DNA from: Escherichia phage PSD2001
Sequence record: OK254198.1
Length of the DNA: 64,000 nucleotides
Reading direction: 5' to 3' (one strand)
The notes beneath the pieces were generated by a model, which was given only the letters and a program-made list of their open reading frames with translations, was not told the origin of the DNA and searched no databases. A program made the translations under genes and the position numbers. This document shows positions 925-51,334 of the stretch, one piece after another. Within the stretch, counting starts at the first letter, position 1. Each line of letters opens with the position of its first letter.

Positions 925-2701
<1,777 letters not shown>

Positions 2702-2711
2702 TATATTTTCC

Positions 2712-2951
2712 TCACGCTTTCTTAGCGATTTTCCAGTCAGCTTTAAATTGGTCAACATCAGAGTGGTGAATCCAGAAACCAGATGAGCTACCATCTTCAT
2801 AAAGAGGACAACCATCACACTCATCTTTCCAACCCATTGCACACAAAGTTTCTTCAGCTTTTTCCAGAGCTTCTGGATTGTTACCCTGGATTGTAAAGTA
2901 CCATTTGCCTTTAACTTCTGAATCTTTGATGCTCTCACGTTGTAATTTCAT
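2712..2951 (-). CDS. hypothetical Cys-rich protein (79 aa)
   Basis: ORF with GGAG RBS; CAMGWKDECDGC motif; early promoter cassette directly upstream. Confidence 0.55.
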   Translation of the reverse strand: MKLQRESIKDSEVKGKWYFTIQGNNPEALEKAEETLCAMGWKDECDGCPLYEDGSSSGFWIHHSDVDQFKADWKIAKKA

Positions 2952-2991
2952 TTTATTCTCCAGGGTTTTAGTTGTTAACTCAGTATGGGAC

Positions 2992-3030
2992 CATTATGTC
3001 ATAGCCCCATTTGGTTGTACACTACTTTTT
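2992..3030 (-). promoter_or_regulatory. T4-type early promoter cassette (UP A-tract, -35 GTGTACA, -10 ATAATG, conserved leader)
   Basis: Plus-strand pattern cattat-N16-gttgtacactacttttt; member of a repeated family. Confidence 0.6.
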
Positions 3031-3295
3031 AAATTTTATCAAGCCATTTTCCAAGTTTAGTCATTTCCTTGGTGGCTTTTTCCATACTTCTGAACTTAAC
3101 TAATAAAGGATAGGTATCTACACCCATCACCAGATTGGTTGCAAGACTATGTTCACCCACAAGCCATAATGAGTATGTTTGAACATCCAGACCATAATTT
3201 CTGTCTTTATGTAAACGTACACCCATTACTTCAAACTGTTCACTCGCCCTTTCTACTGCGTCCAGGAAATCATCTTTAGTCATATTAGACCCCAA
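3029..3295 (-). CDS. hypothetical protein (84-88 aa)
   Basis: ORF track; start may be the internal Met at 3283. Confidence 0.45.
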   Translation of the reverse strand: MGSNMTKDDFLDAVERASEQFEVMGVRLHKDRNYGLDVQTYSLWLVGEHSLATNLVMGVDTYPLLVKFRSMEKATKEMTKLGKWLDKI

Positions 3296-3647
3296 AAGTT
3301 GCTTTAATCAATGCAATGACTTCCGCAGCATTTTTGTGATTGACTTGCACATGAATGGTTTGGGTATCAACATCAGGAGCATCGCCATCAACTTCCAGGA
3401 AGTGGCGGAATTCACTTTCAGAGAGTTCAAAATAATCATCAGCTCCATCGCTATTCAGGATGGTACCATCTTTCATTTCAACTTTTTCAACAAAATAATC
3501 ACCTTCAATATAACACATATCCAGGACTTTGAAGGAATTACCATGTTGTTCCATCAACTTGACCATACACGAATTAGATTTAGGATTTTCTTTAATGAAA
3601 CGTTTTTTGGCAGCAGGGTCTAATACGTAAAATTTACCAGTTTCCAT
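3285..3647 (-). CDS. hypothetical protein (120 aa), paralog of 3994..4356
   Basis: Start moved to internal Met with GAGGA RBS; shares the DDYFELSE.EF motif and C-terminal helix with 3994..4356. Confidence 0.6.
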   Translation of the reverse strand: METGKFYVLDPAAKKRFIKENPKSNSCMVKLMEQHGNSFKVLDMCYIEGDYFVEKVEMKDGTILNSDGADDYFELSESEFRHFLEVDGDAPDVDTQTIHVQVNHKNAAEVIALIKATFGV

Positions 3648-3704
3648 TTTAATTTCCTCATATTCAATTGGGAACATATTATCATGTTCCCGTTGGTTTG
3701 TATA

Positions 3705-3932
3705 CTAAGCTTCAATCAAATTCATATAAAATTCAGCGTCTTCCGGGTGCATCCCTTCGCAATACTCATCAGCCATAAAGCGGGTAAGGTCTTCAAGAGG
3801 ACCTTGGACTTCAATTTGCATACTACAGAATTGCTTATCTTTAATGTAAGTCATGCACAAAGAAGGATAACGATTGCGAATAACTTCGTAAGTGTATTCA
3901 AAATCAACGATATCAATATTAACCTTAGCCAT
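3705..3932 (-). CDS. hypothetical protein (75 aa)
   Basis: ORF track; early promoter cassette upstream. Confidence 0.5.
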
Positions 3933-3959
3933 TTTATTTTCCTCATGTAGTTGATAGGT

Positions 3960-3995
3960 CTATAGTATCTCAACCATAGACCCTTGTAAACTGCT
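3960..3995 (-). promoter_or_regulatory. early promoter (-35 GTTTACA)
   Basis: Plus-strand ttgtaaac with -10-like element ~16 nt away; upstream of 3705..3932. Confidence 0.5.
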
Positions 3996-4356
3996 ATTTG
4001 AAAGCTTTTTGTAGAAGTTCAATGATTTGGTCAACGTTATTAGCATCCACAACACAATTAATAGAAACCGCACCTGAAGGTGTTTTTGCATAACTAGAGT
4101 ATTCACGGAAGCAATAAAACTCTTCTTCACTAAGTTCAAAATAATCATCGCCCATACCATCATCATTATAGATTGCACCATTAGCACAAATGATTTCGGT
4201 TACATAATCATAGCCGTCTGCACTTGATATTGATTTAACTTCAAACCAACCGCCATTTTCTTGGATGATGTCGACCATACCAGCATTCGATGAACTAATA
4301 TCAATGAAAGATTTAATACGATGTGGATTGAACTCATATTTTTTGCCGATTTCCAT
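3994..4356 (-). CDS. hypothetical protein (120 aa), paralog of 3285..3647
   Basis: ORF track; shared motif with 3285..3647; early promoter cassette upstream. Confidence 0.6.
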   Translation of the reverse strand: MEIGKKYEFNPHRIKSFIDISSSNAGMVDIIQENGGWFEVKSISSADGYDYVTEIICANGAIYNDDGMGDDYFELSEEEFYCFREYSSYAKTPSGAVSINCVVDANNVDQIIELLQKAFK

Positions 4357-4393
4357 TTTAATTTCCTCAGTTGTTATCAGTAGTTGATGGAAT

Positions 4394-4433
4394 CATTATG
4401 CCTTAGCTCAAAGGACTTGTACACTACTTTTTG
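4394..4433 (-). promoter_or_regulatory. early promoter cassette
   Basis: cattat...cttgtacactactttttg directly after the gene 32 terminator. Confidence 0.6.
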
Positions 4434-4444
4434 AAAATAAAAAA

Positions 4445-4460
4445 GGGACCCGAAGGTCCC
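4445..4460 (-). terminator. rho-independent terminator after gene 32
   Basis: gggaccCGAAggtccc followed by a T-run on the minus strand. Confidence 0.75.
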
Positions 4461-4466
4461 CTTATA

Positions 4467-5378
4467 TTAAAGGCCAGCCAGAAGGTCGTCAAGACCATCA
4501 TCAGAAGGCTCTGGAGTGCTTGGAGCAGTCGCAGTGCGTTCAGACTTAGCAGGTTTGCTGGAAGTGAAGTCTTCCATATCTTTATCAAAATCGTCCAGGT
4601 CAGCACCCAGTTTATCGGCTTGCGCAGCAGCTTTAGAAGCAGCACCACCGAGAGCAGCTGTACCCATTACTTTAGAGAATTTCTTCTGATTCTCTTCAAG
4701 AGATTTAAATACCAGCAATTCATTCAGGTCAGACATTTCGTCCCAAAGTTTTTTCTGGAATGCTTCATCATTGATGCCAGCGATTTCAGACTGGTTCATG
4801 AATTTGGAATCATCGTAGTTTTTATAATTGGAAACCATTTTAGATTTCAGTACGAAGTTCGCACCTTCAAAAGGACAGGTTACATCAACAGCTGTTTCGC
4901 CCATGTCAACATCGACTTCAACCATCTGGTTGATTTTGTCCATGATTTTCTTACCAAAGCGATATTTGAATACTTGACCTTCGTTAGACGGAACTGCAGG
5001 GTCTTTAATGACCAGGATGTTAGCCCAGTAAGAAGTATTACGCTTCAGTTTACGATATTCGGATTCGTTTGTATTGTACAGGTCATTCTTATTCATGTAC
5101 GCACACACAGGGCAGTTTTCATAATCGCCGTGAGTAGAAGTACAGTTTTCAATATACCATTGACCAGCATTTTTAAAGCCGTGGTTAACGAGCTTGATGA
5201 ATGGAGATGGATTTTCTTCATTCTTAGAAGGCAGGAAACGAATAACCGCAGAGCCGACGCCATCAGTATCTTTCAGTTTCCATTCTTTTTTATCGTCAGA
5301 AGAGAAACCAGAACCACCTTTAAGAGCGTTAAGGGAAGCAGCCAGGTCAGCAGGGTTTTTACGTTTAAACATAGACAT
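4467..5378 (-). CDS. 32: single-stranded DNA-binding protein gp32
   Basis: 303 aa; [23 protein letters not shown]...; Zn-binding Cys/His cluster; acidic C-terminus; terminator hairpin immediately downstream. Confidence 0.95.
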
Positions 5379-5438
5379 ATGATTTTCCTTAGATTATTTG
5401 ATTTTTAGCAGTTGTTTTGATTACGTATTAATTATACT

Positions 5439-21098: not shown

Positions 21099-21151
21099 TG
21101 TGTAACTCAGTATGGAATCATTATGTCCTAAGACAAGGGGGTTGTACACTA
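21099..21151. repeat. 53-bp exact direct repeat, copy 1 (partner at ~47422-47474)
   Basis: tgtgtaactcagtatggaatcattatgtcctaagacaagggggttgtacacta read identically at both places. Confidence 0.85.
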
Positions 21152-21186: not shown

Positions 21187-21284
21187 TAGTCTTTATCTAT
21201 CTTATTACCAATAAACATACCAACAATCACACCTGCGATTGCCGCAAAAATACAAAGCAATGCAAACTCAACTCCAAAACTCAT
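21186..21284 (-). CDS. small hydrophobic peptide (32 aa), translationally coupled to the gene 52 stop; not in ORF track
   Basis: ATGA overlap with gene 52 stop; MSFGVEFALLCIFAAIAGVIVGMFIGNKIDKD; ends inside the terminator hairpin. Confidence 0.4.
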   Translation of the reverse strand: MSFGVEFALLCIFAAIAGVIVGMFIGNKIDKD

Positions 21285-22660
21285 AGAGCCTCCAAGTCAT
21301 TAAGGTATTCAGTTTTAACATCAGTTGTCTTCCAGTATTCATGCTCAGCTTTCTTAGCCTTTGCTTCGTCTGCAAGCTTCTTGGCTTCATCAGAGGTCAT
21401 ATGGTAGATGTTCATCGCCACTAACTTCTCTGCATAATCGCCATATATTTCACTTGCCTGGAGTTCCTCAATCAACTTCTTACGAGGTTTCCCCTGGATA
21501 ACAACCTTACCGTCAATCACTTCTTTAATAAAGAAGACTTTTGCCCGGGCCAGTTTAAATGCTGCTTCAGTTTCTTTAATCTTACTGTCAATTCGCACTT
21601 GAACATAAGTCTTACGGACATCAACGAAATCGCGAATCAGGTCAAGCGTGTTGGTGTATTCGGCCAGCTTACCTTTGTGATTAAGCACCGTTAAGTTCTG
21701 GGAGAGCTTCTCAATCAGACCGAAGTCTTTCATGATTTTCTCATGATTCTCTTCTTCAGTACCATCCAACTTGTATTCTTTGCGGAATTTAATCTTAAAC
21801 CCAAAACCATGCTCGCCGCAGTTATCTTTCCAGGTGATAAAACCTTTCTCTTCCAGCGGGTCCAGGATTTTACTTGTATACTTTTCCAGGTTCCATTGGA
21901 CCGGGATTTCAGTAATTTCCATTTGGGTCCTGGAGGTCATTTTGTATGTGCCATGAAGTTCATACTTACCAGGCTCTTCCAGCTCAACAACTTCACCGCG
22001 GAATTCTGGATATTTTACTTTCGGAGCAACCGGCTCACGACCTTCCACGATAGCTTTAACAGCTTCCTTGACGTCCTGGAACGAATGAGGAAGTATATCA
22101 GTAGCGAAGCCAACAGCAATCCCAGAAGTGGCGTTAAGTAATACAGTAGGAATAACAGGAAGATAAAAAGCAGGAGGCTTATGTTCTTCATCAGGATGGA
22201 CCGGAGCATATTCTGTATCCTTAAACAAGTTATAAAAGTTCTTTGAAACCCTTGCGAATACATAACGAGCTGATGATGCTTCTGGCACCATTCTGGAACC
22301 AAAGTTGCCTTGCCCATCAAACATGGGGTATTCATTTTTATATGTTGCGACCAGACCAGAAGTTGCTTCTTCCGCCGATGCTTCGCCATGGTGATAACCA
22401 TAATCAGCTACGCCGCCGGCGATAGATGCAACTTTATGGAATTTATTCTTATCACCACGAGCCAGGTCTAATGCTCTCGCCATAACAAATCTGTGAACTG
22501 GTTTAAAACCATCAATCATGTTTGGGATGGCACGACCTTCCACAGTGTAGATAGCATATGATAATGCTTCCACATCAATAATGTCTTTTAGACTGCGTGG
22601 GTTAAGGGTCCCCATGGAATCACTGAACTGTTTGGACATCATACTTAAAACGTCAGACAT
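21281..22660 (-). CDS. 52: DNA topoisomerase II medium subunit gp52
   Basis: 459 aa; GyrA/ParC-like N-terminus (...AIPNMIDGFKPVHRFV...) as in T4 gp52. Confidence 0.93.
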   Translation of the reverse strand: MSDVLSMMSKQFSDSMGTLNPRSLKDIIDVEALSYAIYTVEGRAIPNMIDGFKPVHRFVMARALDLARGDKNKFHKVASIAGGVADYGYHHGEASAEEATSGLVATYKNEYPMFDGQGNFGSRMVPEASSARYVFARVSKNFYNLFKDTEYAPVHPDEEHKPPAFYLPVIPTVLLNATSGIAVGFATDILPHSFQDVKEAVKAIVEGREPVAPKVKYPEFRGEVVELEEPGKYELHGTYKMTSRTQMEITEIPVQWNLEKYTSKILDPLEEKGFITWKDNCGEHGFGFKIKFRKEYKLDGTEEENHEKIMKDFGLIEKLSQNLTVLNHKGKLAEYTNTLDLIRDFVDVRKTYVQVRIDSKIKETEAAFKLARAKVFFIKEVIDGKVVIQGKPRKKLIEELQASEIYGDYAEKLVAMNIYHMTSDEAKKLADEAKAKKAEHEYWKTTDVKTEYLNDLEAL

Positions 22661-22991: not shown

Positions 22992-23059
22992 AGACGCCAG
23001 TTAATTTCAGATTATGACGATGCCATTGCATCACGTGCTCATTATGGAAATTACTCATA

Positions 23060-23509
23060 TTAATAGCTCTGCAGAATGAATTTAAAGTTATCAGCAAGCA
23101 TGCGATTCATTTCTGAAAGGGTCTGACAATCAGAACTATGTGAGCGTGTGAACGCCATCGCAATTTGACCTTTACCATAACCAGTTGTCAAAGGTTTCAT
23201 TTTAGAAACTGGAACAAACAGGACTTCATAGATAACACCATTGTTCGCCATTGTGCGCGACAGTTGTGAACGCTGTTTGCGGATGTGACTTAATACAGTG
23301 TCAAACCCTTGTTGTGAACGTTGGTTACCAACGTAAAAACGTGCAGCAACAATACGTGATTCGCCTTCACCTTTAACCACGAAATAAAAACCTGGTTGGG
23401 TGATAGCTTCTTTAGTTGGACGCCCTACAACATAATTGCCATTATGGATGTGAGCAACAGTGGTAGCGCCAGCATTCAGTACGTCACGACGGGTCATGTA
23501 AGTAGTCAT
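23060..23509 (-). CDS. ndd: nucleoid disruption protein Ndd
   Basis: 149 aa; ...PGFYF...[29 protein letters not shown]...[12 protein letters not shown]...AFTR...[15 protein letters not shown] matches T4 Ndd. Confidence 0.9.
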
Positions 23510-23552
23510 ATTAATTTCCTCAGTAAGTTAAAGTTTTGTGCTCCAGTGGGGT

Positions 23553-23592
23553 CATTATACTCTGACCCCAAGAGTTTGTACACTATTTTTGA
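23553..23592 (-). promoter_or_regulatory. early promoter cassette with stem-loop spanning the -10 region
   Basis: ggggtcattatactctgacccc ... tttgtacactattttt. Confidence 0.55.
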
Positions 23593-23927
23593 AGTTGTTC
23601 TAAAATAAATCCGCTGGTGTAAAAGGGAGCATTATAAACCTTGTTCAGTGGGTTCAAAGCCTGTCCGTAAGTATCACATAGTTCTTTGATAACATTTTCA
23701 TAGCTTACATAATAACCACTATGATAATACGGGTCCATACTCATACGAAATTTAATGAACCGATAAAAGCCTGTTTCTGGGTCTTGAACGAAAACGAAAT
23801 CAGCACTCGTCATAATTTTTGAATCTACGCCGGGAATCATACTTTGATTGAATGCCGCCGATGCATCCTGAAGGCTGAGTTGTTTAAAGAACATCACCTT
23901 AGCATTACCAAAAAAGATTTTAGACAT
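23583..23927 (-). CDS. hypothetical protein (114 aa)
   Basis: Start set at internal Met with AAGGA RBS. Confidence 0.5.
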   Translation of the reverse strand: MSKIFFGNAKVMFFKQLSLQDASAAFNQSMIPGVDSKIMTSADFVFVQDPETGFYRFIKFRMSMDPYYHSGYYVSYENVIKELCDTYGQALNPLNKVYNAPFYTSGFILEQLQK

Positions 23928-23937
23928 GATAATTTCC

Positions 23938-24150
23938 TTATTCAGCGTCAACAGAAATAGCCATCAGTTCATCAACAGTAAGACACTGTACACTAGGACC
24001 TACGCAAAAACGCTTAGTTGAATCATTGAGGTCTGTAGCATTAACAGGTTGTAATTCGGTCCCAACTTGCAAAGGAGAAATACGAATAAGTTGTTGGCCA
24101 TTATGCAATACAAAGCTCTCACCGACTACCACATCTTTAAAAAGTTTCAT
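23938..24150 (-). CDS. hypothetical protein (70 aa)
   Basis: ORF track; GAGG RBS. Confidence 0.5.
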   Translation of the reverse strand: MKLFKDVVVGESFVLHNGQQLIRISPLQVGTELQPVNATDLNDSTKRFCVGPSVQCLTVDELMAISVDAE

Positions 24151-24167
24151 AATATTTTCCTCAGTAA

Positions 24168-24314
24168 TTAAAGAATTTCTTCAATTTGAATGTATTTGCT
24201 ATAACCTTCCTCAATGAGGATATCACGAGCACAATCAGCACTGATATAAGCATTAAAGCTAAGGGTTTTAATCACTTTACCATGCAGCTTTACTTTATAA
24301 ATTCGATTACCCAT
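24168..24314 (-). CDS. hypothetical protein (48 aa)
   Basis: Internal Met with GAGG RBS; intergenic cassette near-identical to that of 23938..24150. Confidence 0.45.
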   Translation of the reverse strand: MGNRIYKVKLHGKVIKTLSFNAYISADCARDILIEEGYSKYIQIEEIL

Positions 24315-24324
24315 AATATTTTCC

Positions 24325-24435
24325 TCAGAAGTTAAAGAATACGCGTACATGGTCAATCATAAAAACAATTGGGAAAATGCTCAGGACAACAAACAGTACA
24401 AACATGTTCCAAATGGCTTTAAGTAACTTTTTCAT
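24325..24435 (-). CDS. small hydrophobic peptide (36 aa); not in ORF track
   Basis: GGAG RBS and early promoter cassette upstream; coordinates approximate. Confidence 0.35.
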   Translation of the reverse strand: MKKLLKAIWNMFVLFVVLSIFPIVFMIDHVRVFFNF

Positions 24436-24460
24436 AATCATCTCCAGTAGTTGATAGGTT

Positions 24461-24498
24461 CATTATACTACAACCACTGGAGATGTACACTCTTTTAT
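24461..24498 (-). promoter_or_regulatory. early promoter cassette
   Basis: cattatacta...gatgtacactctttt. Confidence 0.55.
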
Positions 24499-24580
24499 GC
24501 AAGTTTCAATAATAATAAACTAAAACAAACGCAAATTACTGGGATGCACAACATCCAGATAAAACACCAGGTTCTGCTGC

Positions 24581-24844
24581 TCACAATTCCACCTCAATGA
24601 TTTCAAGTTGATTTTCAACAATTGCATGCTGAATACATTTATACACATCAATGGACCAGGAATTATTATATTGCCCATCAATCAAACGTTGAAGGTCTTC
24701 GCGAGTTGACAGATATGGTTGGTCTGATTCCCATTTTGATAAAAACATTGTGGTGTATGTATCGCCTTCGCCGGTGACAAAGGTCGCGGATGCAACAAAT
24801 TCCCCAGTAACTTTATGCTTGACATAGTAAAATTTAAATTTCAT
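24581..24844 (-). CDS. hypothetical protein (87 aa)
   Basis: Internal Met with GGAG RBS; early promoter cassette upstream. Confidence 0.5.
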   Translation of the reverse strand: MKFKFYYVKHKVTGEFVASATFVTGEGDTYTTMFLSKWESDQPYLSTREDLQRLIDGQYNNSWSIDVYKCIQHAIVENQLEIIEVEL

Positions 24845-24872
24845 TTTGTTTCTCCAGTCTGTTTGGTAACTC

Positions 24873-24912
24873 AGTATGAAGCCATTATGCACTGACTCCA
24901 TACTGATGTACA
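24873..24912 (-). promoter_or_regulatory. early promoter cassette
   Basis: aactcagtatgaagccattat...gatgtacactatttt. Confidence 0.55.
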
Positions 24913-24917
24913 CTATT

Positions 24918-25193
24918 TTAATTGTGCATTTGTTCTTTAACTTCTTTATATGCGCCAACTGCATTCACGACCCCAGTAAAATCTGCAGTACCGCGATAGA
25001 GATATAAAGCAATTTCAGTCAGGTGGTAGACTTCAAATTCTGAAAGATAAACGATAACGTCATAATATGCAACTTGACCCTGGACTTCGTTGAATACCAC
25101 ATCAAAAATTTCATGAGTTGGAAAATTGATGTTGTTGTTTTTGAGTGCTTGGATAAGAATTTGTTTGATGTTGTGAGTAGTAACGTGTTCCAT
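24918..25193 (-). CDS. hypothetical protein (91 aa)
   Basis: Internal Met with GAGGA RBS; the track ORF's 5' extension overlaps the next gene. Confidence 0.5.
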   Translation of the reverse strand: MEHVTTHNIKQILIQALKNNNINFPTHEIFDVVFNEVQGQVAYYDVIVYLSEFEVYHLTEIALYLYRGTADFTGVVNAVGAYKEVKEQMHN

Positions 25194-25222
25194 GATAATG
25201 TCCTCATTTGTTGGTATGAGGA

Positions 25223-25256
25223 CATTATTACACAGTTGGTTCAGCTTGTAAACCGG
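25223..25256 (-). promoter_or_regulatory. early promoter (-35 GTTTACA)
   Basis: cattattacacag...cttgtaaacc; hairpin cctcat...atgagg adjacent. Confidence 0.5.
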
Positions 25257-25834
25257 TGATAGGGAAATTTTTCTTCTGAACAAGAACGGAGGTACCAGCC
25301 ATCCCCTTGTGACTTTTGCACAAGACCAGACTCAGGAACGAAAGCACCAGGTCCAGCAAGGAATTTTGGCTTAAAACGATAACCTTTGATAGTCTCTTTT
25401 ACATTAAACATAATCATAAGGTCAGCAAGCTTGTGTTGCATAAAAGGACCAAGATTGACCCCGTAACCATGCGGATAATCGCCCTGGTGACCAGTATGCA
25501 CGGATATCCATTTGGAACCGGACTGATGAGTCTTGACTTCAATTCTTACGCCTTCTTTCGAAACTACATCAAATGCAAAGGAATAAGGATTATCGTAATC
25601 TTCATCACCGCCGCATAAAAAGCCGGAGGTCCATTTGGCAATAGCTTGTTCTGCCATTGTAGCCACCATACATCTTTGCATGACTTGCTCACGGTCCTGG
25701 CCAGGGTCTTTACGTAATGAATACCTGGCAGTGTCTACAATCTTTTGCAGTGATTCTGGGGTTAAGTCTTCTTTTGTATAAAGAAAGGAAGGCATCTTTT
25801 TCAGATGCTCCCATGTTTTACTCTTCTGAATCAT
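25241..25834 (-). CDS. hypothetical protein (197 aa) in the T4 denB (endonuclease IV) position
   Basis: Size and position next to rIIB resemble T4 denB; sequence identity not confirmed from memory. Confidence 0.45.
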   Translation of the reverse strand: MIQKSKTWEHLKKMPSFLYTKEDLTPESLQKIVDTARYSLRKDPGQDREQVMQRCMVATMAEQAIAKWTSGFLCGGDEDYDNPYSFAFDVVSKEGVRIEVKTHQSGSKWISVHTGHQGDYPHGYGVNLGPFMQHKLADLMIMFNVKETIKGYRFKPKFLAGPGAFVPESGLVQKSQGDGWYLRSCSEEKFPYHRFTS

Positions 25835-26087
25835 CTTTTACCTCATCGATACCGACGATTCCCCGGATATGAAGCTCGCCATAGTACAAACGGTCATTAG
25901 CATCAAATGTATCAGAATCCGGGTCAGGAAATTCCCCAACAACTACTTCATCACATTCCAACCAGCCATAGTGAACATCACCTTCATGCTTGATAAGCTT
26001 ACCACAGTAAACTATTCCTGCATAATGATGACCCCGGAGATTTGAAACTTTGATGTCACGGTCTGACACATTGAAATGCTTAATCAT
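25818..26087 (-). CDS. hypothetical protein (89 aa)
   Basis: ORF track. Confidence 0.5.
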   Translation of the reverse strand: MIKHFNVSDRDIKVSNLRGHHYAGIVYCGKLIKHEGDVHYGWLECDEVVVGEFPDPDSDTFDANDRLYYGELHIRGIVGIDEVKDDSEE

Positions 26088-26090
26088 AAT

Positions 26091-26288
26091 TTATTCACCA
26101 AAATAAGAGATACGAGTTGCCAGTACATGAGCATATGCGCCCATCGCATCTAACTGGGCAATCAAAAGACCTTGTTGACGAGCATCGAGAGTTTCAAAAA
26201 CTCCACCCTTAATAAACTCTTCAAGAGCATTAATTTTCAAAACCAGCTGGTCATATTCTTCAACTACACGTGCTTGGAAACCTAACAT
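26091..26288 (-). CDS. hypothetical protein (65 aa)
   Basis: ORF track; directly downstream of rIIB. Confidence 0.5.
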   Translation of the reverse strand: MLGFQARVVEEYDQLVLKINALEEFIKGGVFETLDARQQGLLIAQLDAMGAYAHVLATRISYFGE

Positions 26289-26300
26289 AAAGCCTCATTA

Positions 26301-26314
26301 GGGGCCGAAGCCCC
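26301..26314 (-). terminator. stem-loop terminator after rIIB
   Basis: ggggcCGAAgcccc. Confidence 0.55.
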
Positions 26315-26321
26315 GATTAAT

Positions 26322-27296
26322 TTAGAATTGTTCAGTTACATCATCAAGGACCAGATAACCACATACCCTCATTTTGGAATCATTATAATCCACCGGGATG
26401 CTTACAACATCGCGCGGGTGAACTTTACAGGATACGATGCGCCCATCACCATGACCAAAGCCACTTCCGATATAACCTTTAGAACAAACGTGCAGCCCAG
26501 TTGAACAGGTCTGTTCGTCATTGTCATTCACACGAGAGCGCGGCATTTTAACATATTGGCCAGGGCTGTTGTCGAATGTGTTTGAGTGGCAATCTTTGTA
26601 GGTTGAACGAACCATTTTCCATGCGATGAAATGGCCGTCTTCGGTGATTTCGATATCGTTCGCAACCAGGAAGTCAAACAAACGCTGTACGGCTTTCTCA
26701 CTCGGGTTCTCAAGGAGATTCTCAAGGAACGGCAGATAAAATTCAAAGTCTTCGCCATTTTGCATTGAATCAATGATACGAGTAACCAGGCCAGAGCGCA
26801 GTTCAATTCCCTGATAGAACAGACTACCACCTTCAATACGCACATCGCCTTTTACATATTTTTGTACTGCAGCTTTGATTGAAATAAACTCGATAGCATC
26901 ATCAAAACGAGATTCAATCAATGCCTGAATAATATCATTAAAGTGTTTATGGTCTTTTGTTGCGTTCCAGACTGTACGACCTTCAGTGATGGAAACGAAT
27001 TTGCTTGATGCGTTCCATACGATTTCTGGACGGCTACCGCCGATTGTATCTTCAACAACCGGAACTTCAACCGTTACTGTCACTGGAGCATTAATCGCCA
27101 CACCAACAGCTGCTTTCAGTGATGCAGAAATGGTTTTAGATAATTTTGATTCTTTATCATTTTTCAAAACACGGCGAATGGTGTCAACCGATACACCGAA
27201 ATTATCTGCTAGTTCCTGTTGGGTATAATTACCAGTTTTATAAAGAGAAACTACCTGGTTTTGGTCAAATTTGGATAAAGCTTTAATATTAAACAT
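26322..27296 (-). CDS. rIIB: rIIB membrane-associated protein
   Basis: 324 aa; ...YTQQELAD.FGVSVDTIRRVLKN... matches T4 rIIB. Confidence 0.93.
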   Translation of the reverse strand: MFNIKALSKFDQNQVVSLYKTGNYTQQELADNFGVSVDTIRRVLKNDKESKLSKTISASLKAAVGVAINAPVTVTVEVPVVEDTIGGSRPEIVWNASSKFVSITEGRTVWNATKDHKHFNDIIQALIESRFDDAIEFISIKAAVQKYVKGDVRIEGGSLFYQGIELRSGLVTRIIDSMQNGEDFEFYLPFLENLLENPSEKAVQRLFDFLVANDIEITEDGHFIAWKMVRSTYKDCHSNTFDNSPGQYVKMPRSRVNDNDEQTCSTGLHVCSKGYIGSGFGHGDGRIVSCKVHPRDVVSIPVDYNDSKMRVCGYLVLDDVTEQF

Positions 27297-42456: not shown

Positions 42457-42974
42457 TAATAACCTCGGTCCTGACGAGCAAAGTTCTCGGCATTTTTCAG
42501 GTAATACAGTTTAAAGATTTCTTCTGCAGTCAGTCCAAGACCATGGAACATATTTAGAACGAAATGTAGAATATCAATCATCTCGAATTTAATTTCTAGC
42601 TGGTCTTCAGGAGACAATTCATCAATACGACGATTACGGAATTCAGCATGTTGCGCTTTCCACGGCTTCCAGCAACTGGATGCGGCTTTCTCACCATTAG
42701 ACATGCCACCGAGCGAAGTCAGAAGTTCACGGAATTCGTCGTCAACATAATCTTTCTGGTTGCGAAGCCATGCAACAACATCGCCTGCGGTTGCCAATTC
42801 ATCTGGATGTGCGTTATATTCTGGTTTTTCTGTAGCCAGACGAACCTGCAAAGATTTCTGCATATCAAGCATAATCTGCAGAGGGTCATCATTGCCTTTT
42901 AGGACATCATTATACGCATCTTGCGCTTTATCAACACCAGCAATCAGTTGAGAACACTCGTTAAAATGAGCCAT
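42456..42974 (-). CDS. 56: dCTP pyrophosphatase (dCTPase/dUTPase, MazG-like) gp56
   Basis: 172 aa from Met with AAGGA RBS; size and position of T4 gp56; MazG-like helical pattern. Confidence 0.8.
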   Translation of the reverse strand: MAHFNECSQLIAGVDKAQDAYNDVLKGNDDPLQIMLDMQKSLQVRLATEKPEYNAHPDELATAGDVVAWLRNQKDYVDDEFRELLTSLGGMSNGEKAASSCWKPWKAQHAEFRNRRIDELSPEDQLEIKFEMIDILHFVLNMFHGLGLTAEEIFKLYYLKNAENFARQDRGY

Positions 42975-50830: not shown

Positions 50831-51334
50831 TTAGTTAATACCTTGGCGTGCTTTCTCTTTAGCTACACATTTATTAATATAGCTCAGACGGTTTTGAGCA
50901 GAACGCTGATACATATCGCGATACTCATTGGCTTTTGGAGAACCCGTCTCCGCTGCCTGATAAGCTTCAGCGCGCATGATGTTTATCTGCATATTGATAT
51001 ATGACATGCAGACCTGTGAAATCTGGTTAACAGTATCCAGGTCATTTTGTCGCTTGGTTTTTGCTTCCAGCTTGGCAATGATTTCGTCATGCTTCGCCGC
51101 TTGCTCGCGTTTGTACTCAATTTCACGTTGAGCATATTTCGCGCAGTTGTTTCCGCATTGATTGTTGTCGCGTTTGTAGATAAGTCCAGTACCACCTTTG
51201 AAATCAAAGGAACCATTATGCACCTGACGGTCCGCAGCAATTCGCGCTTTACCAATCTCGTTGGCATTAACAACATCACCCTGGTAAGCACAACCAGATA
51301 GCAGCATAACAGCTGCGATAGCTAACTTTTTCAT
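50831..51334 (-). CDS. lipoprotein (167 aa; signal peptide with LLSGC lipobox)
   Basis: MKKLAIAAVMLLSGCAYQG...; occupies the slot where T4 has beta-gt/42. Confidence 0.6.
   Translation of the reverse strand: MKKLAIAAVMLLSGCAYQGDVVNANEIGKARIAADRQVHNGSFDFKGGTGLIYKRDNNQCGNNCAKYAQREIEYKREQAAKHDEIIAKLEAKTKRQNDLDTVNQISQVCMSYINMQINIMRAEAYQAAETGSPKANEYRDMYQRSAQNRLSYINKCVAKEKARQGIN

Follow-up and report, generated by a model that had tools for sequence, protein, structure and literature searches.

A Probable Gaprivervirus Counterpart of the T4 D Region Between rIIB and ndd of Escherichia Phage PSD2001, with Exchangeable Single-Gene Modules and Promoter Hairpins

The T4 D Region and Related Systems

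The early genes found between rIIB and gene 52 of phage T4 follow the order rIIB, denB.1, denB, ndd.6 to ndd.1, ndd, stp, ac, 52.1, and 52. Deletions spanning rII to ac—the "D region", which includes denB and ndd—are viable (PMC12115623), and the block is consequently accessory in the laboratory sense. The present analysis concerns the corresponding interval of Escherichia phage PSD2001 (sequence record OK254198.1), of which a stretch of 64,000 nucleotides, referred to here as the window, was examined. Positions 23583–26288 of the window, referred to as the island, are quite probably the Gaprivervirus counterpart of the dispensable rIIB-to-ndd early block of T4, with exchange of modules and gating by hairpins.

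Two further systems provide a frame for this locus. In the T4 genes e, soc, 49, and I-TevI, the ribosome-binding site (RBS) is sequestered in a hairpin on long transcripts, and the promoter lies within that hairpin. The elements known as PeSLs (promoter-early stem-loops) have been described from RB49/phi1, T4/PST, and KVP40/nt-1 (Arbiol et al. 2010, PMC2839356; Comeau et al. 2014, PMC4122927), and the difference between T4 and PST at ndd.4/.5 is one of the examples used for them (Comeau et al. 2014, PMC4122927). Recombination between PeSL cassettes yields deletions and mini-circles, crossovers between the −10 hexamer and the ATG have been sequenced in them, and T4-type recombination needs less than 50 bp of homology (PMC2839356, PMC4122927).

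Gene Content and Conserved Scaffold of the Island

A megablast search with positions 23000–26400 matched 94 GenBank phage records, nearly all of them Escherichia or Shigella T4-like phages, and assigned the source of the window to a T4-like phage of the genus Gaprivervirus, with Escherichia phage P479 as the best match (93.5% identity over that interval). The island is dense with short open reading frames (ORFs) of 36 (or 38) to 197 amino acids (aa), and every real gene in it lies on the minus strand. After gene 52, the order is 52.1, an ORF for a 61-aa membrane protein, ndd, the island, rIIB, and rIIA (Table 1). A previous reading of this DNA from its letters and ORFs (the sequence-only reading) had recognized eight or more small ORFs of 36–197 aa here; the short ORFs were confirmed, but the count rises to ten genes, since a 29-aa Ndd.6-like gene had been missed. 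Those genes without a promoter of their own follow their neighbors at distances of −17 to +17 nt, or share start and stop codons with them in an overlap.

Purifying selection, or else conservation reaching to T4, marks each of the ten island genes. The ratio of nonsynonymous to synonymous substitutions (dN/dS), calculated by the Nei–Gojobori method against the homologues in 16 related loci and T4, was 0.01–0.5 in all informative comparisons for the nine island ORFs scored, and 0.03–0.5 for the small ones. The loci of the relatives were taken from GenBank phage records, an IMG/VR scan with DenB having yielded only three loci.

Comparison of gene order across the 16 related loci and T4 revealed a scaffold common to Gaprivervirus and Dhakavirus, which reads denB.1, the DUF7418 gene, denB, (o91), one or two genes in the o87 slot, ndd.6, ndd.4, (o48 and/or an ndd.3-like gene), ndd.1, o114, and ndd. 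T4 shares denB.1, denB, ndd.6, ndd.4, ndd.1, and ndd in the same order—that is, five of the ten island genes plus ndd—and homologues of nine of the ten are found in the Dhakavirus phages JS10 and/or IME341. The variable elements are o91, which is lost outside Gaprivervirus, the copy number and allele of o87, and the presence and position of o48; furthermore, ndd.1, o114, and the DUF7418 gene each occur in two classes among the relatives.

DenB and DenB.1

The sequence-only reading had placed the 197-aa ORF at the position of T4 denB, leaving its identity open. This ORF does lie between rIIB and ndd, as denB does in T4, and a profile search identified it over residues 1–196 as phrog_1360, "DenB-like DNA endonuclease IV" (E 1.7e-80). 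Its identity to T4 DenB is 46% over 178 of its 197 residues (E 6e-56, in a database of 15 T4 proteins). The Pfam copy searched contains no DenB family, and the precomputed family PF26887 (Phage_T4_End_IV) is assigned to 17/17 database relatives of the protein. When the protein is aligned with its homologues from T4, from Dhakavirus, and from relatives further removed, residues G71, D89, E99-V-K101, S175, and G179 are invariant, and W180 is kept in all but one sequence. S175 is the equivalent of Ser176 of T4 DenB, which has been reported to be crucial for polarised, deoxycytidine (dC)-specific cleavage (PMC2175332). Likewise, G71, G179, and W180 correspond to G71, G180, and W181 in T4/T2 numbering, the sites hit in T2 DenB (G71R, G180E, and W181*) by mutants that escape retron Eco2 (PMC12916289). 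The dN/dS of the gene is 0.01–0.05. In comparison with T4 DenB, whose description as endonuclease IV can be found elsewhere (PMC1635256, PMC2095790), the window protein holds a C-terminal extension of 12 residues. An AlphaFold2 model (pLDDT 78.6, pTM 0.80) predicts a nuclease fold of the PD-(D/E)xK type with a metal-binding acidic/lysine motif, and a PDB sequence search returned no solved structure related to DenB. Judged by homology and position, the 197-aa ORF is a true DenB orthologue, and its nuclease activity, including dC-specific cleavage of single-stranded DNA, would be expected to be that of the T4 enzyme.

The 65-aa product of denB.1 belongs to a family, PF21825, recently named Sequestin; proteins of this family have been shown to inhibit type I Thoeris and to bind 3'cADPR (bioRxiv 10.1101/2025.07.12.664507). 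The match covers residues 4–61 of 65 with E 1.1e-19 and a score of 70.5 bits, the cut-off being 24.8; T4 DenB.1, with which the protein shares 52% identity, also matches PF21825 (68.6 bits). The pocket of SequestinB is formed by R7, E11, Q45, and R59, and a 64-aa T4 protein, Y16O, produced resistance to type I Thoeris when engineered into phage SBSphiJ (both from bioRxiv 10.1101/2025.07.12.664507). The window protein and its T4 counterpart both have R7, E11, Q45, and R59, a correspondence established by position number and conservation in T4. Y16O is presumably T4 DenB.1, because the latter has 64 aa, lies in the denB–rIIB interval, and matches PF21825. The 65-aa ORF thus shares with the Sequestin family the profile match, the class of short helical proteins of 60–80 aa, and the pocket residues, and is predicted to bind 3'cADPR and to block type I Thoeris; its dN/dS is 0.07–0.23. 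TadIV-1, the T4 sponge against type IV Thoeris, was also considered for the island and rejected, as it is Vs.3 and is encoded outside it.

These two proteins give the block a practical side. DenB and Ndd keep T4-type phages from transducing host DNA, which is relevant to the choice of therapy phages (PMC12115623), and DenB is the trigger of retron Eco2 (PMC12916289). Together with DenB.1 as a likely Thoeris inhibitor, this means that the 2.7-kb block bears on which hosts permit growth.

Breakpoints and Mosaicism Among Relatives

BLASTN comparison of the window with each locus revealed recurring breakpoints at 26288, 26080, 25834, 24840, 24807, 24605, 24581, 24312, 24176/24148, 24071, and 23952/23938. 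Of the 16 distinct breakpoints, 11 fall no more than 10 nt from a start or stop codon, whereas only 12.9% of the island lies that close to one (binomial P = 4e-7), and the enrichment is stronger still once the start of Ndd.6 is counted.

Mosaic alleles are seen in o114 and ndd.1. Both are about 100% identical to their counterparts in phage 212 and 92–95% identical to those of Dhakavirus IME341; only 60–66% identity is found between o114 of the window and that of P479, and between ndd.1 of the window and that of VR20. The allele classes of the island are incongruent among the relatives.

Two relatives exemplify other kinds of change. Phage fDHCT2 is a hybrid, with denB.1, DUF7418, and denB of Gaprivervirus type (91–98% nucleotide identity) and an ndd of Dhakavirus type (72%); it has kept the promoter hairpin of o91, the gene itself being reduced to a remnant of 32 codons. 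VR7 has gained a gene for an HNH homing endonuclease in the space separating rIIB from denB.1, where a related insertion is found in phage 212. The borders of the insertion in VR7 and 212 correspond to positions 26330 and 26288 of the window, which lacks it.

The Junction Linker and the Movable o48 Module

The near-identical RBS spacers that the sequence-only reading had pointed out at about 24150 and 24314 are indeed a repeat, and a longer one than described. A 17-mer, CATAATATTTTCCTCAG (CTGAGGAAAATATTATG on the minus strand), occurs exactly at 24148–24164 and 24312–24328, and again with two mismatches at the start of ndd (23507–23523). Allowing up to three mismatches, 12 copies are found in the window against 0.31 expected, a number that 0/100 shuffles reach. 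The two exact copies form part of a 29-nt direct repeat with 93% identity (24148–24176 and 24312–24340) and a spacing of 164 nt, which flanks o48. Copy A leads from the end of ndd.4 to the start of o48, copy B from the end of o48 to the start of ndd.1, and a third, diverged copy precedes ndd (Table 1), with a stranded ACTGGAG remnant resembling a Shine–Dalgarno sequence upstream of it. The shared stretch ATTCTTTAA encodes ..FFN at the end of ndd.4 in copy A and IL-stop at the end of o48 in copy B. Since these are two different frames, protein constraint does not explain the identity of both copies.

The relatives show what becomes of this arrangement when o48 is missing. In the window, o48 is preceded by ...gtATTCTTTAACTTCTGAGGAAAATATTATG-ggtaat and ndd.1 by ...aaATTCTTTAATTACTGAGGAAAATATTATG-aaactt. 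Phages fDHCT2 and IME341 are without o48 and have a single linker copy, in which the left flank of copy A is joined straight to aaactt, the right flank of copy B. By its sequence, this junction is the deletion product expected of a crossover in the repeat. Other relatives use the linker at different places: in VR20, it joins o48 to the ndd.3-like gene; in EAWsc9 and pEC-M719, where o48 occupies a different slot, ndd.1 and o48 meet at a closely similar CTGAGGAAAATATTATG junction, as do ndd.1 and o114 in CJ20. These rearrangements around o48 were probably caused by recombination between the short linkers.

Outside the island, four more near-copies of the GAGGAAA...ATG junction lie on the minus strand at 2699–5392, next to two promoter cassettes, and their clustering suggests a second variable region of the same build.

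Promoters and Their Hairpins

Only four sigma-70-type promoter sites lie on the coding strand for the ten genes, and the sequence-only reading was therefore wrong in giving every ORF a promoter cassette. Three of them are sites of the form aaaa(a)(g)taGTGTACA-N16/17-[TC]ATAAT (23583, 24490, and 24913), and the fourth is a weaker GTTTACA-N17-AATAAT at 25253. No MotA-box middle promoter and no late promoter were found in the island, nor was any terminator-like site detected on the coding strand in its intergenic spaces.

All four promoters are embedded in hairpins predicted to be stable, which differ in what they enclose. That of ndd.4 (−26.8 kcal/mol, z −5.6) holds the −10 in its loop, and its 3' arm comprises the GGAG Shine–Dalgarno sequence and the first ATG; it is kept across the 14 Gaprivervirus-type relatives compared, with the exception of fDHCT2. 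In the hairpin of o91 (−24.9 kcal/mol, z −5.3), the −10 lies in the 5' arm, and the 3' arm extends over the Shine–Dalgarno sequence to one base before the ATG; the relatives show wobble-compatible changes only. The hairpins of o87 (−22.6 kcal/mol, z −3.9), with a variant stem in relatives, and ndd (about −20 kcal/mol, z −2.3 to −3.6) both hold the −10 in the loop and leave the RBS outside the 3' arm.

Covariation is seen in the ndd-type hairpin, whose stem changes from UGGGGUCA/UGACCCCA in Gaprivervirus to GAGAAUCA/UGGUUCUC in Dhakavirus. In an alignment of eight sequences, 64/64 cells pair and 5/8 pairs have changed on both sides. The covariation score of 0.71, obtained from these eight related sequences from three promoter positions in two genera, compares with 0.33 in shuffles (0/500 reach 0.71) and with 0.25 at most when the partners are slid.

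Promoters of this class number ten in the window, or eleven with the weaker GTTTACA site. The seven aaaaagtaGTGTACA-N17-[TC]ATAAT cassettes outside the island, all on the minus strand, are located at 3022, 4424, 21149, 34236, 35317, 38676, and 47472. Among these seven, a GGGG...CCC hairpin is present at two and none at five. Directly after the −10, each of the ten cassettes has one of three sequence types that recur—CCATACTGAGTT, ATCAACTACTG, and CCCACTGGAG—and a 23-nt stretch of the cassette at 21149 is 100% identical to the promoter of the o87 slot in several relatives. The promoter-proximal Shine–Dalgarno sequence is GGAG, the target motif of RegB, which is encoded by the relative VR7; a link of RegB to the GGAG sites is only a lead.

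Proposed Mechanism and Points Against It

Transcription of the island would run leftward, started at the four internal sigma-70-type early promoters and also arriving as read-through out of the rII genes. Its products would include DenB, a nuclease of the PD-(D/E)xK type whose T4 counterpart cleaves single strands of DNA that contain dC and aids the destruction of host and plasmid DNA; DenB.1, a Sequestin sponge expected to soak up the Thoeris signal 3'cADPR; the membrane peptides Ndd.6 and Ndd.4; a putative SH3-like Ndd.1; and the DUF7418, o91, o87, o48, and o114 proteins. Single-gene modules would be inserted, deleted, moved, or replaced at short conserved junctions acting as patches of homology, namely, the 29-nt linker, the promoter cassettes, and the first or last few codons of neighboring genes, while the scaffold of denB.1, denB, ndd.6, ndd.4, ndd.1, and ndd would stay put. 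The promoter hairpins are expected to form in read-through RNA only. In the case of ndd.4 and o91, they would bury the RBS there, so that translation would proceed mainly from transcripts of the own promoter, which start inside the hairpin. This promoter use and the translational gating of ndd.4 and o91 are suggested by the arrangement of sites and stems.

Several observations weigh against this reading. No linker has to be invoked for the allele exchanges at DUF7418, ndd.1, and o87, as ordinary homologous recombination in conserved neighbors together with old divergence of the middle gene suffices to explain them, and selection against disrupted genes would also concentrate breakpoints at gene ends. 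GAGGAAA followed by an AT-rich spacer and ATG makes a strong RBS, and the similarity of the 12 copies may be partly convergent. Regarding the hairpins, no U tract follows any of them, and the covariation is based on eight related sequences from three promoter positions. Finally, the usual logic of DenB presupposes phage DNA that lacks plain cytosine, but a gene for dCMP hydroxymethylase was not detected.

This last point has several sides. T4 DenB spares phage DNA because hydroxymethylcytosine replaces cytosine. An anti-cytosine toolkit exists in this lineage: DenB, with Ser176 kept, and the dCTPase gp56 (42459–42974, 70% identity to T4) are encoded in the window, and DenA and Alc in VR7. No homologue of gp42 (dCMP hydroxymethylase), beta-glucosyltransferase, or Dam was found in the window, which covers the uvsX-to-43 slot; that slot holds a 167-aa ORF (50834–51334, phrog_1754) with weak similarity to T4 Imm.1. 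In VR7, 133 of 169 kb were searched, the rest being the late structural block. Present in the part searched are alc, denA, td, cd, and gp56; no homologue of gp42 or beta-glucosyltransferase was found there at E < 1, and no second thymidylate-synthase homologue was seen in the lineage. The genus Gaprivervirus lacks the HmC gene according to a 2025 paper (PMC12115623), and an earlier paper reported modified, unglycosylated cytosines in VR7 DNA. It is conceivable, if somewhat doubtful, that cytosine is replaced through a pathway not of the thymidylate-synthase type and that the discrimination between self and non-self by DenB rests on that base. A DenB of changed specificity in the window is another possibility.

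Weighing of Rival Explanations

The junction cassettes could alternatively be convergent, optimised RBSs with no role in recombination, gains and losses being due to illegitimate recombination and selection for intact genes. The scattering of the 12 similar GAGGAAA...ATG sites across the window is what a preferred RBS would produce, several allele swaps show no linker at their borders, and selection puts visible breakpoints at gene ends under any mechanism. However, the identity of copies A and B includes the 12 nt that precede the Shine–Dalgarno sequence, within two coding regions read in different frames, and fDHCT2 and IME341 show the exact single-copy product of a crossover inside the repeat. 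Moreover, five different gene-to-gene junctions in relatives consist of the linker or of a CTGAGGAAAATATTATG junction closely resembling it, and both the short homology needed by T4-type recombination and the sequenced PeSL crossovers between −10 and ATG (see above) speak for exchange at such sites, which makes convergence an unlikely explanation. A comparable degree of doubt attaches to the idea that the promoter hairpins act on DNA, as cruciforms or single-strand sites that expose the −10 or attract a structure-specific nuclease such as endonuclease VII, and thus serve as recombination hot spots or alter promoter opening. This would account for the −10 lying in the loop at three of the four island promoters and at two elsewhere in the window, and for breakpoints adjoining the promoter cassettes; compensatory changes in the stems fit DNA and RNA pairing equally, and GGGG...CCCC stem-loops have been speculated to be protein targets for recombination (Arbiol et al., PMC2839356). 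On the other hand, the stems tolerate G-T pairs (UG and GU types), a trait more often seen in RNA; duplex DNA does not readily extrude stems as short as 8 to 14 bp; and two of the hairpins exactly cover a Shine–Dalgarno sequence and start codon, an arrangement with a meaning at the RNA level and a precedent in T4.

A more general question is whether the island is an accessory region at all. It could be a core, fixed operon for host takeover, with small ORFs needed in every host, and the purifying selection on all its genes agrees with this view. The sequence-only reading had taken such islands as the main reservoir of host-specific accessory functions, and had regarded gene-for-gene conservation in distant T4-like phages as a sign of the opposite. 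That conservation holds halfway among the relatives compared, because five of the ten genes (plus ndd) stand in T4 order and nine have a Dhakavirus homologue; what emerges is a scaffold that is conserved apart from a small number of slots open to variation. The accessory character is borne out by the Sequestin-family DenB.1 and by the T4 D region being deletable, with denB and ndd, from rII to ac, and is limited by the five genes kept in T4 order. A fixed operon is further contradicted by o48, o87, o91, DUF7418, the ndd.3-like gene, and the HNH gene, which differ in presence, copy number, position, or allele among phages more than 90% identical elsewhere, as well as by the DenB.1 family countering a defence carried by only some hosts, and it appears very improbable. 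A Gaprivervirus version of the T4 D region, built on a scaffold and shuffled at short junctions, is therefore preferred.

Other Genes and Features of the Locus

The features of the locus are collected in Table 1. At the lower boundary of the island, ndd is well supported (Pfam Phage_T4_Ndd, E 3.7e-69; 61% identity to T4 Ndd). At the upper one, the space between rIIB and denB.1 holds a tetraloop hairpin with no U tract after it. C(UUCG)G hairpins are an extra-stable type known from T4 intercistronic regions, and the one found here might be an RNA stabiliser or attenuator.

The stop of the DUF7418 gene overlaps the start of denB by 17 nt. Its two allele classes, of 89 and 106 aa, share 34% amino acid identity, with swap borders at 26080 and 25834, and dN/dS is 0.08–0.46; the protein has no T4 counterpart and no PDB relative in a sequence profile search. 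The o91 gene (dN/dS 0.03–0.19) forms a single 90% cluster in a search of 5.8 billion proteins; a search of 1.84 billion representatives added just one more real relative, and from such searches it is nearly an orphan. That only distant relative, with 54% identity, was found in a metagenomic, T4-like contig of 4340 bp (Logan SRR24146912), which holds rIIB, Sequestin, DUF7418, DenB, an unrelated 81-aa ORF, the o91 relative, and Ndd.4, whose equivalent there carries PF26889. The position of this relative, in the same place after denB, indicates that the o91 slot is older than the genus.

The o87 slot holds one or two genes among relatives, including paralogous copies of the o87 family, and the last codons of o87 carry the Shine–Dalgarno sequence for the following gene. 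This is the Ndd.6-like gene, whose coding sequence fills the 139-nt "gap" after o87. The peptide is kept in 17/17 other phages compared, including T4 Ndd.6, and its start overlaps the preceding stop as ATGA, GTGA, or TTGA in 16/16 non-T4 relatives scanned; it is nonetheless absent from the P479 annotation and from the list of the sequence-only reading. A terminator hairpin proposed for the same "gap" was rejected, being no better than shuffles (z −0.33) and located inside the Ndd.6-like coding sequence.

Among the remaining genes, ndd.4 (phrog_3098) shows 61% identity to T4 Ndd.4 and a dN/dS of 0.04–0.16. The o48 gene has no PHROG, Pfam, or NCBIfam match, but is nevertheless under constraint (dN/dS 0.03–0.25). 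Ndd.1, with 53% identity to its T4 orthologue, is predicted from its model (pLDDT 79.9) to be a small barrel of the SH3/Tudor-like type. Pfam (E up to 10) and NCBIfam searches returned nothing for o114, ndd.1, o48, o87, and o91, PDB profile searches returned nothing significant for Ndd.1, o114, DUF7418, and o87, and an Rfam search at E up to 1 gave sub-threshold noise only. DARPin matches in the PDB profile searches were rejected as compositional. The product names given to island genes in EAWsc9 (PQ341120)—KTSC, MafI immunity, YopX, DUF2829, and COesterase—have no Pfam support even at E 10 and should not be propagated.

Table 1. Positions of the genes, linker copies, and promoter hairpins in and around the island (window coordinates).
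Feature	Position	Strand	Basis or remark
gene 52 (topoisomerase)	21281-22660	minus	
ndd, 149 aa, nucleoid disruption protein	23060..23509	minus	lower boundary of the island
third linker copy, diverged	23507..23535	minus	76% identity; ends at ndd ATG
ndd promoter GTGTACA-N17-TATAAT + 8-bp hairpin	23547..23583	minus	stem UGGGGUCA/UGACCCCA
o114, 114 aa	23583..23927	minus	phrog_10053; two allele classes
ndd.1, 70 aa, T4 Ndd.1 orthologue	23938..24150	minus	precomputed PF26909
linker copy B, ATTCTTTAATTACTGAGGAAAATATTATG	24148..24176	minus	o48 end, Shine–Dalgarno, ndd.1 ATG
o48, 48 aa	24168..24314	minus	movable one-gene module
linker copy A, ATTCTTTAACTTCTGAGGAAAATATTATG	24312..24340	minus	ndd.4 end, Shine–Dalgarno, o48 ATG
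ndd.4, 38 aa (36 aa from second ATG), membrane peptide	24325..24441	minus	T4 Ndd.4 / Pfam Phage_T4_Y16N
ndd.4 promoter GTGTACA-N16-TATAAT in 18-pair hairpin	24438..24490	minus	repeat I10
Ndd.6-like hydrophobic peptide, 29 aa	24495-24584	minus	GTG start overlaps o87 stop (GTGA)
o87, 87 aa	24581..24844	minus	phrog_2390; most variable slot
o87 promoter GTGTACA-N17-CATAAT + 14-bp hairpin	24866..24913	minus	repeat I5
o91, 91 aa	24918..25193	minus	phrog_17571; lineage-restricted
o91 promoter GTTTACA-N17-(TG)AATAAT + perfect 13-bp hairpin	25190..25253	minus	repeat I16
denB, endonuclease IV orthologue, 197 aa	25241..25834	minus	PHROG, T4 identity, key residues, predicted fold
DUF7418 protein, 89 aa	25818..26087	minus	Pfam DUF7418, E 3.4e-33
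denB.1, 65 aa, Sequestin-family (PF21825)	26091..26288	minus	Pfam, T4 identity, pocket residues
GGGGC-UUCG-GCCCC tetraloop hairpin	26301..26314	minus	between rIIB stop and denB.1 start
rIIB	26322-27296	minus	

Comparison with Known Systems

The island is an ordinary, already annotated variable early region of T4 type, with genes and shuffling of known kinds, and none of the findings made here overturns what is known about the hyperplastic regions of T4-like phages. Three elements appear to be undescribed for this phage group: the promoter-less 29-nt linker around o48, the hairpins enclosing the −10, and the unannotated Ndd.6-like gene.

With the T4 D region, the island shares its position between rIIB and gene 52, its strand, and its early expression class, as well as denB.1, denB, ndd.6, ndd.4, ndd.1, and ndd, with 46–61% amino acid identity for the five scored. 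It differs in holding DUF7418, o91, o87, o48, and o114, which are absent in T4, and in lacking ndd.2, ndd.2a, ndd.3, ndd.5, and stp of T4.

The likeness to PeSLs lies in repeated intergenic cassettes, each combining an A-rich tract and a stem-loop with a sigma-70-type early promoter that is followed by a Shine–Dalgarno sequence and an ATG, and in the concentration of these cassettes in variable regions, at the borders of indels and replacements between close relatives. However, the stem-loop of PeSLs is located upstream of the −35, whereas that of the window wraps the −10 and, in two cases, also the RBS. The window cassettes are further distinguished by their GTGTACA −35, the lack of a U tract, and a doubtful terminator function: with neither a U tract nor a terminator-like site in the intergenic spaces, their hairpins are unlike the terminating stem-loops of PeSLs. 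Moreover, the clearest gain and loss, that of o48, takes place at a promoter-less linker consisting of stop, Shine–Dalgarno sequence, and ATG. The o48 module can thus be regarded as an unusually clean natural case of the gain, loss, and relocation of a single-gene cassette through a 29-nt linker.

In ndd.4 and o91, the Shine–Dalgarno sequence lies in the 3' arm and the −10 in the loop or the 5' arm, a likeness to the T4 genes e, soc, 49, and I-TevI that is recognized here from sequence. The internal promoters of those T4 genes are late ones (TATAAATA), whereas those of the window are sigma-70-type early promoters. The island hairpins may be seen as a PeSL variant in which the −10 hexamer is enclosed and, as the ndd-type hairpin shows, compensatory changes preserve the stem.

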